A DNA stretch of 34,539 bases from an uncultured Eubacterium sp. (GTDB taxonomy: Bacteria; Bacillota; Clostridia; Oscillospirales; Acutalibacteraceae), in the NCBI GenBank assembly GCA_964538695.1, contig CAZIEH010000001.1, positions 1-34,539 of the forward strand, given 5' to 3'. The notes under the pieces are model-generated. The model was given only the letters and a program-made list of their open reading frames with translations, made no database searches and was not told the DNA's origin. The stretch's first letter is position 1, and each line of letters opens with the position of its first letter. The position numbers were made by a program, and so were the translations under genes. Positions 2,345-30,988 of the stretch are shown one piece after another.

Positions 2345-3094
2345 CTATTTAAGCAGCTTTACAAAATCTACCTCGTCAATTTGCAGTACGCTATCGGCAC
2401 TTTTTCCCGTCGTTATGCCACCGAACTTGGTATTTAAGCTTTCGTAAAGCGGTTCTTCGACAAAAATTGCCGCATTTTGCACCTTGCCGTCCTGCAACTT
2501 AAATGTGCCCTGATAGCCGTACAAAGCATACATTTCGCCGTCATCGTTTTTCTTTATGTATTCGTCGCCGACCTGTATAAAATACGAATCGTCAACAGCT
2601 TGCTCAACATACTTCGGCTGGTTGCAGTTTTCGCGACCCGACAGTGTTTTTTTAATGTGTTCGTTCTTTACATATTCCGAATAAAGCATTTTACCGCCGT
2701 TAGCATACAGCTTTTCGCCGTTGTAGCTACCCTTATATATTTCAATGACTTGCGGTGTAACCTCGGTGTTAATAAGATAGTTGTCTGCAATAAAGCCTTT
2801 AGCTTCCTTTACCTTTATTTTCACAACCAAATCGGCATCCCCGACAAGCTCGTCAAAATTTAATGCAATCTTACTGTAATTGCATTTGGTTGAAATTTTC
2901 AAAGCCGATGCATCATCTACGCCTTTTTCTGAGCTTGTTTTTGAGCTTATTTCGGAGCTTGAGCTTGCGGCGGCTGTGCCTGCTTTAGATGAGCTTTGAG
3001 CCTTTTCCTTGTCCGAGCAGGCACAAAAACAGGCTGTAAGCAGCAATGCAACTGCGACGGATAATATTTTCAATTTTTTACTCAATTCAAGCAC
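2345..3094 (-). CDS. hypothetical lipoprotein with a Ser-rich linker
   Basis: Signal peptide with Cys-containing lipobox-like LLLTACFCAC, then a Ser/Ala-rich low-complexity linker. I recognise no family. The start is uncertain: GTG 3094 abuts the SD, while TTG 3085 has better spacing to AAAGGGTG. Confidence 0.6.
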   Translation of the reverse strand: MLELSKKLKILSVAVALLLTACFCACSDKEKAQSSSKAGTAAASSSSEISSKTSSEKGVDDASALKISTKCNYSKIALNFDELVGDADLVVKIKVKEAKGFIADNYLINTEVTPQVIEIYKGSYNGEKLYANGGKMLYSEYVKNEHIKKTLSGRENCNQPKYVEQAVDDSYFIQVGDEYIKKNDDGEMYALYGYQGTFKLQDGKVQNAAIFVEEPLYESLNTKFGGITTGKSADSVLQIDEVDFVKLLK

Positions 3095-3141
3095 ACCCTT
3101 TCTGTTTTTATGACAACTTATATTGCGGTATAAGTCAATAT

Positions 3142-3174
3142 AAAAAGCAAACCCACCGTATAAAACACGGTGGG
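3142..3174 (-). terminator. rho-independent terminator of the symporter gene
   Basis: On the minus strand, CCCACCGT...ACGGTGGG forms a hairpin followed by TTTGCTTTTTATA. Confidence 0.65.
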
Positions 3175-3181
3175 CAATTCG

Positions 3182-4612
3182 CTACTTTTCTATTTTACAA
3201 CGAATTCTGTTGTGATACGCGCGTGTTTCTTTGGAAACCACACCGCCGAGTGCGATTAACGCGATAAGGTTTGGCAGTGCCATAAGGCCGTTGAAAATAT
3301 CGGCAATTGTCCAAACGGCAGACACCGTGAGGTAAGGACCGATGAAAACAGCGGCAATGTACAGCCAACGGAATGCAATCATAATAAACTTTTTGCCGCC
3401 TGTAAGATATTCAAGGCAACGCTCGGAATAATAGTCCCAACCGAGAATGGTGGTAAACGCAAAGAATGCAAGACACAGCATAAGCAAGAAGGACGAAACA
3501 TTTTCGTTCCACGGCAAGCCATTTTGCCAAGCATAGTTGGTAACCTGAACACCCTCAAGACCTTTTACATCATATGCACCTGTAAGGACTATTGAAAGAC
3601 CTGTCATAGTACAAACAACGATGGTATCTATAAAAGTACCGGTCATTGTAACAAGACCCTGACGAACAGGCTCGTTAGTCTGTGCCGCCGCAGCCGCAAT
3701 AGGTGCAGAGCCGAGACCTGCCTCGTTCGAGAAAATTCCGCGACCGATACCCTTTTGCATAGCCATTTTTATACTGATACCGACAAATGCGCCGCCTGCC
3801 GCCTCGGGGGTGAATGCGCTTTTTACAATTAAAACGATAGCGGACGGTATCTCTTTAACATTGCAAAAAACAATTACAAGTGCCAAAACAACATATGTAA
3901 TTGCCATAAACGGAACAACAACCTGCGCAACACTTGAAATACGCTTAATACCGCCGATAATGACAAGTGCCACAAACAGTGTTACTATAATACCGCCGAT
4001 AACGACCGACCATGTGTAGGAATTATCGCCGATAGAGAAAGCGATGTTTGTTGCATCCTTGTCGAAAAAGTTTTGTATAGCAGAGGTAATACCGTTAATT
4101 TGCGTAAATGTACCGATACCGAGAAGACCGACGAAAATACCGAAAAACGCAAATAGCTTTGCAAGCCATTTCCAGTTTTTACCCATACCCTTTTCTATAT
4201 AATAGAACGGACCGCCGAGAAAGTGACCGTCGCCCTTATCCTCGCGGTATTTTACCGCCAAAAGACCCTCGGCATATTTGGTCGCCATACCGAAAAATGC
4301 GGCGACAATCATCCAAAAAAGCGCACCGGGGCCGCCGGCACAAATGGCAGTTGCAACACCGACGATGTTACCCGTGCCGATAGTCGCCGAAAGCGCGGTA
4401 CACAACGCACCGAAGCTTGAAACCTCGCCCTTTCCGCCTTCTTCATTCTTTACCATAAATTTCAGTGCTTTGCCGAGGTGAAAAACCTGTACAAAGCCCG
4501 AACGCACGGTCAAATAAAGACCCGCACCGAGAATGAGGACTATCAAAAACCATCCCCAAATAAAATCGTCAATACTGACAAGCCAGTCGTTGAACCATTC
4601 CACACCGTTCAC
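3182..4612 (-). CDS. alsT: alanine/glycine:cation (sodium) symporter, AGCS family
   Basis: Polytopic membrane protein with the family-typical block SFGALCTALSATIGTGNIVGVATAI. Its length is about 470 aa. The SD GAGGAG fits the second GTG at 4603 better than GTG 4612. Confidence 0.85.
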   Translation of the reverse strand: MNGVEWFNDWLVSIDDFIWGWFLIVLILGAGLYLTVRSGFVQVFHLGKALKFMVKNEEGGKGEVSSFGALCTALSATIGTGNIVGVATAICAGGPGALFWMIVAAFFGMATKYAEGLLAVKYREDKGDGHFLGGPFYYIEKGMGKNWKWLAKLFAFFGIFVGLLGIGTFTQINGITSAIQNFFDKDATNIAFSIGDNSYTWSVVIGGIIVTLFVALVIIGGIKRISSVAQVVVPFMAITYVVLALVIVFCNVKEIPSAIVLIVKSAFTPEAAGGAFVGISIKMAMQKGIGRGIFSNEAGLGSAPIAAAAAQTNEPVRQGLVTMTGTFIDTIVVCTMTGLSIVLTGAYDVKGLEGVQVTNYAWQNGLPWNENVSSFLLMLCLAFFAFTTILGWDYYSERCLEYLTGGKKFIMIAFRWLYIAAVFIGPYLTVSAVWTIADIFNGLMALPNLIALIALGGVVSKETRAYHNRIRCKIEK

Positions 4613-6400: not shown

Positions 6401-9253
<2,853 letters not shown>

Positions 9254-9265
9254 TTGATTGTTATA

Positions 9266-9297
9266 AAAAGGGTGAACCCGTGCGGTTCACCCTTTTT
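9266..9297 (+). terminator. rho-independent terminator after the GH2 gene
   Basis: GGGTGAACC (9270-9278) pairs with GGTTCACCC (9284-9292), followed by TTTTT. Confidence 0.75.
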
Positions 9298-9315
9298 CAT
9301 GCTTGTATACATTAA

Positions 9316-9362
9316 GCAAAAAACGAAAGCGTCGACAAAAAAGTGCAATTTTCTGTCGACGC
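9316..9362 (-). terminator. rho-independent terminator ending the minus-strand orphan transcript
   Basis: The minus strand reads GCGTCGACAgAAAAttgcacTTTTtTGTCGACGC followed by TTTCGTTTTTTGC. This is a 9+4 bp stem followed by a T-run. Confidence 0.7.
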
Positions 9363-9557
9363 CGTTTCACTGTATTCATTTTTAATTTTTTAACTGATTT
9401 AACTGTATCTTTTTAATATATCATCGGACCAAGACGCTCCGTTATAATATTAAACAAGCAGGTTTAAAGTCTCTGTTGCTGCATCTTATTTTTTTGACGG
9501 CGCAGTCACCGCTGCGCGAATGCGTTAATCACGATAATTATATGCCCTAACAGCAGC

Positions 9558-9584
9558 TTATACCCGATAATCTTCGTGGTACAT
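9558..9584 (-). CDS. micro-ORF MYHEDYRV (8 codons) behind SD-like repeat copy 4
   Basis: AAAAGGTGAGTCCG precedes the ATG, with 5 nt between GGTGA and ATG. Stop is TAA at 9558-9560. Translation is purely hypothetical. Confidence 0.15.
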   Translation of the reverse strand: MYHEDYRV

Positions 9585-9585
9585 C

Positions 9586-9755
9586 GGACTCACCTTTTCT
9601 TAAAAGAATTTTTGATAAACAGTTAATAACAAAATTTTGGGACTCACCCTTTTTCAAAAATTTGTCGAGATCAATTTCAGTAAATCTTTGGACTCACCCC
9701 TTTAATTTATTTTGTCGATTTAACAGGTGGTTCGTTCTGCATCGGTCTCGGCTCC
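9586..9755 (-). repeat. four copies of an extended Shine-Dalgarno-like motif at 54/50/54-nt spacing (decayed tandem array)
   Basis: The plus strand has GGACTCACC at 9586, 9640 and 9690, and the related GGTCTCGGCTCC at 9744. On the minus strand these read AGAAAAGGTGAGTCC, AAAAAGGGTGAGTCC, TTAAAGGGGTGAGTCC and AGAAAGGAGCCGAGACC. Flanks also align (TCGACAAA-type block upstream of each). A weaker fifth copy lies at 9426-9440. Confidence 0.7.
9707..9742 (-). CDS. micro-ORF MQNEPPVKSTK (11 codons) behind SD-like repeat copy 1
   Basis: AAAGGAG lies 9 nt before ATG (9740-9742). The TAA stop at 9707-9709 sits immediately before the next SD-like repeat. Translation is purely hypothetical. Confidence 0.15.
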   Translation of the reverse strand: MQNEPPVKSTK

Positions 9756-9773
9756 TTTCTTTTTGTTGTCTTT

Positions 9774-9802
9774 ATTATAGCAATAAAATGCAAGTTTGTA
9801 AA
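9774..9802 (-). promoter_or_regulatory. sigma-A-like promoter of the orphan transcript
   Basis: On the minus strand: TTTACA (9797-9802), a 17-nt spacer (aacttgcattttattgc), then TATAAT (9774-9779). Confidence 0.5.
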
Positions 9803-9887
9803 GATGGCATTTTACACAAAGATTTGCCCAAATTTTCTACTACCACCCTTGTGCTGAAATGTGGTATAATATTGTTGTTATGATGGT

Positions 9888-9922
9888 ATCGGGGCTGTAA
9901 AAGATTTACAGCCCCGATTTTT
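9888..9922 (+). terminator. 13-bp hairpin with a T-run on the plus strand only, abutting the DUF11 stop codon
   Basis: ATCGGGGCTGTAA (9888-9900) pairs with TTACAGCCCCGAT (9906-9918), then TTTTT. Read on the minus strand, the sense of the DUF11 gene, the hairpin is followed by ATACCATC with no U-run. Confidence 0.5.
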
Positions 9923-10772
9923 ATACAGTGCCCGTTACGGTAAGCGTTACCGCCGATGGTATTACAACCACACTGCCGTCTGCAACACTTTGGGTATAGC
10001 TTGCGGCAGGAACAGTGATTTGCCCTGCAACAGTAGAAAACTCGCCCGTTGCGGTGTTATAGGTGTACCCTGTTCCCTCGGCAAGTGCAGTACCTCCGAG
10101 TGCTACCGCAAGGTCGGAAAGCAACGGATTAAAGGTATCGGTTACGGTTACATCAGCCGCCGCATCTGCCGCGGTATTGCCATAGTTTTGTATGGTGAAG
10201 GTATAGGTCAATCTGCCGTTTTCGCTGACAGGCACGGGTGAAATCGATTTTACTATATTAAGCAGCGGTGCCGATACCGTTCCAACAGTTTCCACAGCTG
10301 TGACAGGTGTTATGCCTCCGCCCGAAACCGTGGCGGTGTTTACTATCGTCGACTCTGTACCAAGCGGCGCAAACCTGTTTGCACGCGCCTCATAAGCTAT
10401 GGTTGCATTACCGTCTGCCGGCACGGAAATGCCGTTTACGGTTAAGGGGTTGGTTTCGGCAACTGTGGGTTCTGCCTGCAAAACGCCGTTTATATAATAC
10501 TTAACCGAGCCCGCAACATAGTCAAGCGGGGTTAAGGTAAGCTCGCCCTGCGTATACTGACCCAAGTTGTCTGTAACGGTCAGACCGTTTATCGCGCTCT
10601 CGCCCGAGTTTACTATGCTAATGATATAGCTTACGGTATCATCGCGACCGTATGAGTCATCAAGTGCGGTTTTGGTAGCAGACAAAACCTCTAAAATCTC
10701 GCCTTCGGCTATATTAGAGTCGGTTGTGCCGCCACTGTAAGAAAGCTGTGCCCTGTTTGTAAATCTTGCCAT
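9921..10772 (-). CDS. DUF11 (conserved repeat domain, TIGR01451-like) protein with two repeats and no signal peptide
   Basis: Two blocks resemble the DUF11 repeat: DDTVSYIISIVNSGESAINGLTVTDNLG and GRLTYTFTIQNYGNTAADAAADVTVTDTF. There is no N-terminal hydrophobic segment, no LPXTG and no TM. GGAGG RBS lies 7 nt before ATG 10770-10772; the 17-codon extension in the track has no RBS. Confidence 0.7.
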   Translation of the reverse strand: MARFTNRAQLSYSGGTTDSNIAEGEILEVLSATKTALDDSYGRDDTVSYIISIVNSGESAINGLTVTDNLGQYTQGELTLTPLDYVAGSVKYYINGVLQAEPTVAETNPLTVNGISVPADGNATIAYEARANRFAPLGTESTIVNTATVSGGGITPVTAVETVGTVSAPLLNIVKSISPVPVSENGRLTYTFTIQNYGNTAADAAADVTVTDTFNPLLSDLAVALGGTALAEGTGYTYNTATGEFSTVAGQITVPAASYTQSVADGSVVVIPSAVTLTVTGTV

Positions 10773-30040: not shown

Positions 30041-30988
30041 ATGTTGAAAGTTGCACTTGTAGGCGTAGGCGGTATCAGCGGCGCGCACATTCCCGCTTGG
30101 GAGAAACGAGAGGATACAGAGATTGTTGCACTTTGTGATGTCAGACCCGAGCAAATGGAGAAGTATCCCGATAAAAGGCGTTATACAGATTTTGACGAAA
30201 TGCTGCAAAAAGAAGAAATAGATATTTTGGATATTTGCCTGCCGACATACCTGCATGCCGATTTTTCGGTTAAAGCAATGGAAAAAGGTATAAATGTTAT
30301 ATGCGAAAAACCTATTTCTCTGAACAAAGCAGATGTCAAACGCGTTTTCGATTGTGCCAAGAAAAACTCGGTCAAATTTATGGTTGCACAGGTTTTGCGC
30401 TTTTGGCCCGAATACGAAATTGTTAAAAGCATATACGACAGCGGCAAATACGGCAAGCTGTTGTCGGGTTCTATGCGTAGGCTCGGTCAACGCCCGAAAT
30501 GGAGCTGGGACGGTTGGATGATGGACGAAAACAGAAGCGGACTTGTTCCGTTCGACCTGCATATCCATGATTGCGACTTTATGGTTTACGCGTTCGGTAA
30601 GCCTAACGACACGGTAAGTTACAGGGCAAAACGACCCGAGCAGGATTATATAAACGCAGTTTACCGTTATGATGACTTTTTCTTAACAACCGAGGCATCT
30701 TGGTACGACTCACCCTATCCTTTCGCGGCGGATTTTCGCTTTCAGTTTGAAAAAGCAATTGTTGCATGGGAAAAGAATGAGATGAAAATTTATGAAGCAG
30801 ACGGCGAGGTTTTCTGTCACATTTCGAATGATGCCGCACTTGACACAGGCAACATAGGCTTGCCCGCAAGTGACGCGTATGCAAACGAAATCAACTATTT
30901 CACCGACTGCGTTATCGGTGACACCTGCCCCGATAAGGTTAAGGCAGAAGAGCTTGAAACGGTTATAGATATTCTTAATAATCTGTGA
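30041..30988 (+). CDS. Gfo/Idh/MocA-family NAD(P)-dependent oxidoreductase
   Basis: N-terminal Rossmann motif KVALVGVGGISGAH and an EKP motif (VICEKPISL). GGAGG RBS before ATG 30041, which is 4 nt after the upstream stop. Confidence 0.85.
   Translation: MLKVALVGVGGISGAHIPAWEKREDTEIVALCDVRPEQMEKYPDKRRYTDFDEMLQKEEIDILDICLPTYLHADFSVKAMEKGINVICEKPISLNKADVKRVFDCAKKNSVKFMVAQVLRFWPEYEIVKSIYDSGKYGKLLSGSMRRLGQRPKWSWDGWMMDENRSGLVPFDLHIHDCDFMVYAFGKPNDTVSYRAKRPEQDYINAVYRYDDFFLTTEASWYDSPYPFAADFRFQFEKAIVAWEKNEMKIYEADGEVFCHISNDAALDTGNIGLPASDAYANEINYFTDCVIGDTCPDKVKAEELETVIDILNNL

Follow-up and report, generated by a model that had tools for sequence, protein, structure and literature searches.

What kind of gene is a promoter-to-terminator unit that holds no conventional open reading frame (ORF) and repeats a word resembling a Shine-Dalgarno (SD) sequence? 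The question is raised by positions 9,316 to 9,802 of a 34,539-nt stretch of contig CAZIEH010000001.1 from an uncultured Eubacterium sp.; this whole stretch is called the window below. An earlier interpretation, made from the letters alone and referred to here as the sequence-only reading, had described the unit as a decayed tandem array of SD-like motifs, each followed by a micro-ORF. We compared the unit with arrays in other genomes, and it is a member of a conserved, apparently undescribed RNA gene family of gut Clostridia, found in Acutalibacteraceae, Oscillospiraceae, and Ruminococcus-type Clostridia. As to how the RNA acts, we give an even chance to the explanation that it is mRNA-like and works by engaging ribosomes, which it would load onto SD-only and minigene modules, and not through peptides. 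Transcription, ribosome occupancy, and a physiological effect of the array RNA are inferred from sequence.

Tandem SD-like modules in the window unit

The unit lies in the 667-nt gap between a GH2 beta-galactosidase gene and a DUF11 gene. The promoter and the terminator that the sequence-only reading had placed on the minus strand were both found (coordinates of all features are collected in Table 1), and they bracket about 450 nt without a conventional ORF. The promoter is the sole promoter-like site in 1.2 kb, and transcription is predicted to start near 9767. Exact copies of the 9-nt motif GGTGAGTCC stand on the minus strand at 9698-9690, 9648-9640, and 9594-9586, at spacings of 50 and 54 nt, and no further exact copy exists in the 34.5-kb window; a rough analytic estimate puts the chance of finding three of them within 110 nt of one strand at about 2e-8. 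The start-to-start spacing of copies 1 to 4 was re-measured as 54, 50, and 54 nt, as first reported, and the proposal that the modules are tandemly duplicated and centered on an extended SD-like word was upheld, the GGTGA core lying at -10, the correct register for a start codon. Comparison of the window units with one another gave a 37-nt repeat (76% identity) and a 20-nt repeat (85%). Tandem Repeats Finder called no array in the unit because just the motif and short blocks repeat. The motif of unit 1 is a diverged copy with a position weight matrix score of just 11.7, and the module of unit 2 begins 8 nt past the stop codon of the first ORF (ORF1). The ORFs of the window unit have 11, 8, and 3 codons. 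Folding of the whole unit gave z scores of -2.55 (minus strand) and -2.96 (plus strand) and therefore does not discriminate between the strands.

A family of related arrays in Clostridia

One genome per GTDB species was scanned with the pattern GGTGAGTCC-N30-50-AARRGGTGAGTCC, which demands two motif copies, and 48 loci were obtained against approximately 6 expected by chance on our own estimate. Clostridia arrays with the architecture of the window unit make up 39 of them, distributed over Acutalibacteraceae (14), Ruminococcus (5, including R. bromii and a cultured R. callidus), "Ruminococcaceae" (4), Oscillospiraceae (2), less precisely named metagenome-assembled genomes (13), and a single Anaerovoracaceae outlier. 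The array-bearing families fall in Eubacteriales at NCBI, for which we take the GTDB name to be Oscillospirales. The other 9 loci are unrelated and consist of coding G-E-S repeats or other repeats (Planctomycetes, Bryobacterales, cyanobacteria, and others).

The window unit shares the layout of the family, with at least two modules of an A-rich tract plus GGTGAGTCC on one strand 41-63 nt apart, and it shares the register, in which the SD core is followed by GUCC-N, by ATG/GTG or AAG/AAA (in the window as A-AAG, C-AAA, and G-ATG), and by an early in-frame stop. An independent family model, built from 100 units without those of the window and of the loci L015 and L037, matched window units 4, 2, and 3 with E = 2.4e-7, 6e-6, and 5.4e-5, respectively; nothing else in the window scored below 0.05, and unit 5 did not reach the threshold (E = 1.3). 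A scan of metagenomes gave 24 matches, 16 in unrelated Gly/Glu/Lys repeat proteins and 8 in family members, with no new ortholog of the window unit among them.

Identification with something already known was not obtained. At the gathering score, Rfam 15 had no match in the window, with only sub-threshold noise across 9240-9940, and no Rfam family covers the arrays in the 39 related loci. An alignment to 6S-Flavo in the window (E = 0.61) was rejected as an artefact of two motif copies. Neither blastn against phages and plasmids nor the pattern scan of viral contigs found a match to the array. A mobile-element origin was rejected on these grounds. No description of the array family was found in the open-access literature searched or in three large RNA-motif surveys, which is absence of evidence and not proof; gene callers and Rfam both miss the array loci.

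A lenient matrix scan of the arrays found 187 units on the array strand versus 22 on the opposite strand, with 2 to approximately 10 units per array. These counts bear on the idea that there is no function at the RNA level, the repeats being decaying duplicates of a gene start, as the sequence-only reading had offered as one option, or protein-binding repeats at the DNA level such as an iteron or operator array. Direct repeats about five helical turns apart and the lack of a clean array in Tandem Repeats Finder would suit it. Besides the strand-specific signal, however, the architecture is kept with positional orthology across 39 species genomes, the stops are frame specific, the units carry their own promoter and terminator, and similarity to phages and plasmids is lacking. 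We regard this idea as the least probable of those considered, with hardly any weight left to it, and "decayed" is not a fitting word for the array.

Three observations from these searches stand apart. Outside Clostridia, GGTGAGTCC mostly represents Gly-Glu-Ser codons in low-complexity repeat proteins (GEGKCGESK- and GGESK-type) of environmental bacteria; the nonfamily pattern loci are L014, L052-L054, L056-L062, L064, L065, L067, L068, L072, and L075, where L062 and L068 apparently contain other, nonprotein repeats. The Anaerovoracaceae outlier, L018 (reverse complement, 1541-2041), has units of the form GGTGAGTCC-A-CCA and no start codons, and it may be a distinct, purely SD-only branch or may be unrelated. 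In the window, AAAGGATAGGGTGAGTC at 30707-30723 (minus strand) is a weak unit-like SD word (family-model E = 0.069) that is followed by G-TAC and not by CC-N-ATG; it is probably an ordinary ribosome-binding site.

Start codons, early stops, and start-less modules

The anatomy of the modules was counted in 113 units with the exact motif. The five bases 5' of the motif are (G/A)AAA(A/G), and the base after it is A, C, G, or T in 50, 42, 20, and 1 units, respectively. At the start position, the triplet is ATG in 68 units, GTG in 9, AAG in 16, AAA in 12, ACA in 5, and something else in 3, so that 77 of the 113 units (68%) have ATG or GTG at the fixed position. The ORFs that these 77 units open are minimal, with 2 codons in 31 cases and 3 in 23; the median is 3 codons versus 10 and 13 in the other two frames. 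ORFs of no more than 3 codons follow 55 of the 77, and the short ORFs announced by the sequence-only reading are in this sense genuine. Their stops are TAA (48), TGA (18), and TAG (11), and one unit of L049 is literally ATG-TAA. Among the start-less units, 25 of 36 have an in-frame stop 3-5 codons on, and a given array position keeps its AAG or AAA from genus to genus; as we read them, the start-less units are not random wrecks. Variants of the motif include GGTGGTTCC, GGTGGTACC, GGTGATTCC, GGTGAGACC, and AGTGAGTCC, in which GGTG-N3-CC is always kept, and the perfect complement of the 16S tail, GGTGATCC, had zero occurrences in the lenient scan. Units are spaced by at least 41 nt, with a median of 54 nt and an interquartile range of 50-61 nt.

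At orthologous positions, the length class of a mini-ORF is kept and its residues are not. In seven genomes, successive units encode VN*, then MA*, MAL*, MAY*, or MVC*, then an ORF of 10-11 codons, and then MK* or MR*; in six genomes, MYR* is followed by MCM*, MYM*, MYR*, or MYW* and in some cases by a further MYW*. The start-bearing ORF of the window, with 8 codons, is at the long end relative to the family norm of 2-3. A polycistronic array that makes formylated di- to octapeptides as its functional products would agree with the conservation of start codons, frames, and stops, and yet we think it very improbable: the residues differ at orthologous positions (MA/MAL/MAY/MVC, MK/MR, and MYHEDYRV/MYLANCRL/MDSEVFN), one third of the units have no start codon, and no export or processing genes occur among the neighbors of the arrays.

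One module has extra structure. In arrays linked to a TauE gene (L006, L012, L023, L034, L045, and L047), the third unit opens an ORF of 10-11 codons, (V/M)GQVEERTP.., which contains a conserved small hairpin, GGAGCGUACUCC, with compensatory variants.

The motif as a candidate ribosome-binding site

For comparison, we used 193 ordinary starts of long ORFs from the same loci. Where GGTGA is present in these, it lies at -10 or -9, which is the register of the units, and the complete motif GGTGAGTCC occurs in 0 of 193. The likeness of the motif to the complement of the 16S rRNA 3' tail, also proposed from the letters alone, is real; predicted duplexes with an assumed canonical tail ranged from -13.4 to -17.3 kcal/mol for the five window units (-15.9 for unit 1), compared with medians of -10.5 kcal/mol for the best SDs of 28 long window ORFs and -10.2 kcal/mol for ordinary starts of the same loci. 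The predicted helix continues past a bulged G into UCC:GGA and ends one base before the start codon; without the bulged G, the motif reads GGUGAUCC. Extended start-proximal SD-anti-SD helices are used in Bacillota (S. aureus), where they rigidly fix the start position (PMC13009471). Judged by these comparisons, the core has both the sequence and the position of a canonical SD, and the spacer, which ordinary genes avoid, is a distinctive mark of the family. The arrays were examined for a conserved intramolecular pairing partner of the motif and none was found; complementarity of the motif to downstream sequence is slightly lower than in shuffled controls (p = 3e-4).

We favor ribosome engagement because the lengths and stops of the mini-ORFs are conserved and their residues are not. 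Several points weigh against it. The loci were ascertained by an exact 9-mer, and motif invariance and taxonomic limits are thus partly there by construction. Many units are orthologous, and the counts overstate independent events, although the contrast in ORF length is fair because the between-frame controls share the same orthology dependence. The 16S 3' tail of these organisms was assumed to be the canonical GGAUCACCUCCUUUCU. CC at -3/-2 is present in 4 of the 193 ordinary starts (2%) versus all units, and T at -1, preferred in ordinary starts (99 of 193), is nearly excluded in the units; like the near-invariant GUCC spacer and the lack of the perfect complement GGTGATCC, these features are left unexplained by a plain-SD model. 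All four could point to another ligand. By partition-function folding of 40 arrays, the motif is not more single stranded than its surroundings (0.43 versus 0.48 unpaired). In the window itself, 2 of the 3 canonical modules are start-less and the ORFs are longer than the norm, so that the minigene part is weaker there.

Several of these observations would be natural for a sponge for a nonribosomal ligand, in which GGUGAGUCC-N-A is the site for an RNA-binding protein or for a trans RNA carrying GGACUCACC, titration is CsrB-like, and the SD likeness and the mini-ORFs are secondary. The GUCC spacer, the CC, and the avoidance of T are unit specific and foreign to ordinary ribosome-binding sites, the start-less units retain the motif with a fixed AAG or AAA, the perfect anti-SD complement is never seen, and a short motif repeated in a stand-alone RNA is the layout of sponge small RNAs. 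A protein site, however, needs neither GGTGA in the exact SD register nor ATG or GTG at a fixed distance in 68% of the units nor early stops of all three types; moreover, the complementary GGACTCACC was not found in the window, and the motifs are not enriched in predicted loops. We consider such a sponge unlikely, although the spacer signature makes it the main rival of ribosome engagement.

How ribosome engagement might work

If ribosome engagement is correct, the gene would produce a stand-alone transcript of about 450 nt that is mRNA-like and not built for protein output. A short translated ORF would come first, followed by a row of modules approximately 50-55 nt apart, each an unusually strong ribosome-binding site in the correct register, with an A-rich tract, a GGUGA that would pair with the 16S 3' tail, and the signature spacer GUCC-N. 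Start-less modules with AAG or AAA would hold a 30S subunit without initiation. Start-bearing modules would offer AUG or GUG and, soon after, a stop (the ORFs have 2-3 codons in most relatives and 8 and 3 in the window). Because the SD is strong and the ORF minimal, a ribosome at the stop would still be tethered to the SD and could re-initiate in place; 70S ribosomes on the minigene modules would pass through short cycles that are abortive or futile. The spacing would permit one ribosome per module, as suggested by the 41-nt minimum. Possible outputs are a titration of 30S/70S subunits or of anti-SD tails, a load on the peptidyl-tRNA, release, and recycling systems of the kind that phage minigenes impose, or an extreme stabilization of the RNA itself; micro-peptides would not be the product.

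Minigene effects have so far been known from phage lambda and artificial constructs. The lambda bar or two-codon minigenes resemble the family in having a strong SD, AUG, one or two sense codons, and a stop that is usually UAA, and in them the act of translation matters and not the peptide, as we propose here. The impact of a minigene on the cell peaks with ORFs of two codons, UAA is its most potent stop, and a strong SD allows re-initiation after release without dissociation of the ribosome (PMC8708949). The family joins these minigene features, in tandem and behind strong promoters, and for this reason a ribosome-occupied RNA is suggested. Minigenes of the lambda bar type are single and located in phage or leader regions, whereas the family has 2-10 modules in a dedicated conserved chromosomal gene and, unlike them, mixes in start-less modules and a conserved short first ORF. 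The complete two-codon arrangement (strong SD, AUG, one sense codon, and stop) is absent from the window and present in 31 family units elsewhere. Retapamulin profiling in E. coli reportedly revealed start-stop and minimal ORFs, that is, initiation sites followed nearly at once by a stop; those sites are isolated and lie in or beside genes, whereas the family forms conserved tandem arrays with a signature SD.

Among regulatory RNAs, CsrB/RsmZ are likewise stand-alone RNAs in which a short SD-like word recurs many times and could titrate a factor that otherwise finds this word on mRNAs. Their motif, A(N)GGA, is placed in hairpin loops, whereas the word of the family is GGUGAGUCC, which is not loop placed and is coupled to start and stop codons; A(N)GGA is not the repeated word in the window, where GGA is found in unit 1 only. 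The candidate ligand of the family also differs, being the ribosome itself. 6S RNA (RF00013) is a conceptual likeness, as a mimic of the normal substrate of a machine that is encoded by its own gene, and it is linked to 16 arrays; it targets RNA polymerase and has no sequence or structure similarity to the arrays. We tentatively suggest, as a possibility less probable than ribosome engagement in general, that the family is a ribosome-directed counterpart of 6S RNA: an abundant mRNA mimic that would set the pool of free ribosomes or anti-SD tails in a growth transition, with start-less modules sequestering 30S subunits, minigene modules trapping 70S ribosomes in futile cycles, and the E-P core of ORF1 acting as a sensor that opens or closes the array.

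To our knowledge, no bacterial RNA targets the ribosome by imitating an mRNA start, and the nearest parallels are 6S RNA (RNA polymerase) and CsrB (CsrA). If ribosome engagement is true, the arrays would found a new class of regulatory RNA in bacteria, directed at the ribosome through mimicry of mRNA starts, and conserved chromosomal minigene arrays would show whether cells use minigene effects physiologically. The GUCC spacer, the CC at -3/-2, and the start-less AAG/AAA modules hint that 30S subunits and mRNAs of Bacillota interact by rules that are unseen in ordinary genes. Experiments are feasible because the bacteria that carry the family are abundant in the gut and include Ruminococcus bromii, a keystone species of starch degradation, and a cultured strain of R. 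callidus.

The first cistron

Most arrays open with a short ORF whose SD is of the GGAG(G) type and again ends in CC-N-ATG. The E-P core MxxE(E)P is shared by 22 first ORFs, that of the window included. Examples of the conserved N terminus of first ORFs are MASEESQLHM (R. bromii group), MYDEEPQK, MNSSEPQS, MNMDIEPQ, MYQEEPHS, MKTEAKPD, and MTWEIEPN, and the group of the window has MQNEPPVKSTK (window), MQSEPPVNSKK (L015), and MQKDPPKMQTK (L037), all of 11 codons. All four Pro codons (CCA, CCG, CCT, and CCC) are used, the E-P core shifts by whole codons alone, and the tails of 9 to 36 residues have little similarity. Because this constraint is of the coding type, translation of ORF1 (9742-9707) is very probable. 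EPP and DPP typically slow the ribosome in an EF-P-dependent manner, and their relevance to ORF1 is speculative. Conservation is thus at the codon level in ORF1 and at the level of lengths and stops, not residues, in the mini-ORFs. In R. bromii-type genomes, an RNA of approximately 700 nt is predicted (promoter at L007 3440-3468), with an ORF1 of 20-23 codons.

The constraint on its codons across the family raises the alternative that the ORF1 peptide or its translation is the real product and that the SD modules are cis stabilizers, similar to STAB-SD, or part of a leader or attenuator. The cryIIIA STAB-SD of Bacillus (Agaisse and Lereclus 1996) is reportedly an SD-like element without a start codon that serves as a 5' stabilizer, and start-less SD-like elements are known as 5' stabilizers in Bacillota. 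Like window units 2 and 3 (AAG and AAA), it has no usable start codon, and it is thought to bind 30S subunits. An additional point for this alternative is that in seven related genomes a TauE gene of like orientation lies approximately 100 nt downstream of the array and its terminator. We nevertheless find it doubtful. STAB-SD is a single element that acts from the 5' end of a long protected mRNA, whereas the modules are repeated and lie 3' of ORF1, in numbers (up to 10) far beyond what a stabilizer needs. In the window, the unit is closed by a terminator of its own and a convergent gene comes next, so that nothing downstream is left to regulate; the genes downstream of other arrays differ, and the ORF1 tails are dissimilar. 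Attenuators with leader peptides or upstream ORFs also have a short conserved 5' ORF and a transcript that ends in an intrinsic terminator, but in the window there is no downstream same-strand gene, no regulatory codon run, and no antiterminator pairing identified.

Conservation of the window unit

L015 (UMGS1532) contains an ortholog of the entire unit. Identity to it is 86% in the promoter, 94% in the leader and unit 1, 89% in ORF1, 73-95% in units 2-4 with their spacers (95% in the SD and ATG of unit 4 and 71% in the body of ORF4), 45% in the middle domain, 90% in unit 5, 40% in the remainder, and 45% in the terminator. The fifth copy had been called weaker and placed at 9426-9440; it is present, at 9442-9422, and it is diverged, and yet as an island of 90% inside poorly conserved flanks of 40-45% it is evidently under constraint. 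Its ORF is MYRF* in L015 (MIY* in the window). The terminator of L015 is its own, unlike that of the window in sequence and equally far past the last canonical unit (262 versus 263 nt).

A micro-ORF had been proposed for each copy, and those of copies 1 and 4 stand. The unit 4 ORF is 8 codons long in the window and in L015 and 7 codons long in L037, with different residues. Copies 2 and 3 are instead conserved start-less modules: the TTG-initiated ORF suggested past copy 3 is missing in L015, and the ATT reading past copy 2 is kept in L015 and lost in L037, whereas the AAG state of unit 2 is kept in L015, L037, L026, L008, and L019 and the AAA state of unit 3 in L015 and L037. The stem of the GCGCA/TGCGC hairpin in the middle domain is kept in L015 with a different loop; in a two-sequence alifold of the 3' domain, 5 of 32 pairs are compensatory, too few to claim a structure. 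An antisense 73-amino-acid ORF (9662-9883, plus strand) is kept in L015 via DNA conservation and has stops in L037, and it was rejected as an artefact of the purine-rich sense strand.

L003 is the only close DUF11 relative (97% amino acid identity). From its promoter through unit 1 and ORF1 into unit 2, the sequence is nearly unchanged, with approximately 4 differences in about 113 nt compared to approximately 14 per 100 nt just upstream; the contig ends inside unit 2. The box upstream of the -35 element is kept in the window, L003, L015, and L037 in the form TTATACCAC ... GG(T/C)GGTAGTAGAAAATT, with 72% identity to L015 versus 57% for the next 28 nt, and it may be a candidate operator for a regulator of the window/L015/L037 subgroup.

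Table 1. Features in and around the window unit, with positions in the window.
Feature	Position	Strand	Remarks
GH2 beta-galactosidase gene	6401-9253	plus	Convergent to the unit
Intrinsic terminator	9363-9317	minus	Stem 9363-9328, 15 pairs, 6-nt loop, T-rich tail TTCGTTTTTT to ~9317
Unit 5, ACGGAGCGTCTTGGTCC-G-ATG	9413-9442	minus	SD + ATG 9442-9422; 3-codon ORF MIY* (9424-9413)
Middle domain	9451-9557	minus	Poorly conserved; hairpin GCGCA..TGCGC (9517-9500), possible enclosing stem
Unit 4, AGAAAA-GGTGAGTCC-G-ATG	9558-9600	minus	Opens 8-codon ORF MYHEDYRV* (9584-9558)
Unit 3, AAAAAG-GGTGAGTCC-C-AAA	9636-9654	minus	Start-less (SD-only); exact motif
Unit 2, TTAAAGG-GGTGAGTCC-A-AAG	9686-9705	minus	Start-less (SD-only); exact motif
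ORF1, MQNEPPVKSTK*	9742-9707	minus	11 codons; family-wide first cistron MxxE(E)P(Q/P)...
Unit 1, GGAG-type SD AGAAAGGAGCCGAGACC-G	9743-9760	minus	Serves ORF1; family signature CC-N-ATG kept; ATG reaches 9740
Sigma-70-type promoter, TTTACA-17-TGnTATAAT	9802-9774	minus	TG-extended, 11/12 matches
Conserved box upstream of -35, TTATACCAC ... GGGTGGTAGTAGAAAATT	9831-9870	minus	Imperfect inverted repeat TACCAC/GTGGTA
DUF11 gene	9921-10772/10823	minus	

Genomic context

A promoter with at least 10 of 12 matches lies within 400 nt of 27 of 40 arrays (many with 12 of 12, TG, and A/T-rich upstream repeats), and a hairpin with a T-run lies within 450 nt of 31 of the 40. Genes downstream vary and include TauE, NAD synthase, rplM, a NuoE-like gene, PFL, and others. 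The sole recurrent neighbor is a DUF1292 gene followed by 6S RNA, upstream of the array and divergent to it, in 16 of the 39 loci (L008, L009, L011, L012, L013, L019, L023, L027, L034, L040, L041, L043, and L045-L048), with 520-900 nt from the end of 6S to the first unit and 1,355 nt in L019. This conserved three-part linkage is frequent but not defining. No 6S RNA match was found in the window, nor is the unit there located divergently from DUF1292-6S, and the units of the window, L015, and L037 have three different neighborhoods; on these grounds we regard the subgroup as a relocated or second copy, unconnected to DUF11. The coupling to DUF11 considered in the sequence-only reading found no support in homologs either, as those of 72-73% identity lie between rplQ and sbcD and the unit is absent there. 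The best homolog of the beta-galactosidase is 69% identical, and no close relatives were reachable by its synteny.

The DUF11/CLIPPER protein of the window (283 amino acids, 9921-10772) has thousands of homologs of the same length with approximately 60% identity in gut Clostridia. In the relatives examined (L001 and L002), its gene follows rpsD-rpoA-rplQ and precedes sbcDC, and in the window it is relocated beside a gene for an MFS transporter. Directly past its stop codon is a perfect 14-bp hairpin (9888-9918) that has a T-run on the plus strand alone, scores as a plus-strand terminator, and is kept with few changes in L003.

In the 6S-linked arrays, A/T-rich repeats occur directly upstream of the -35 element, either as two copies of AAAAGTTCACAAAAAG or as the palindrome AAAAGTTTTCAACTTTT (L012, L027, L034, and L047, at ~60 nt upstream of -35; L011, L019, L040, L041, and L043); they may serve as an UP element or as a site for a regulator. 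In L013, an RNase P RNA gene (2877-3226) lies directly downstream of the array and 6S lies upstream, which places three noncoding RNA genes in approximately 2.3 kb.

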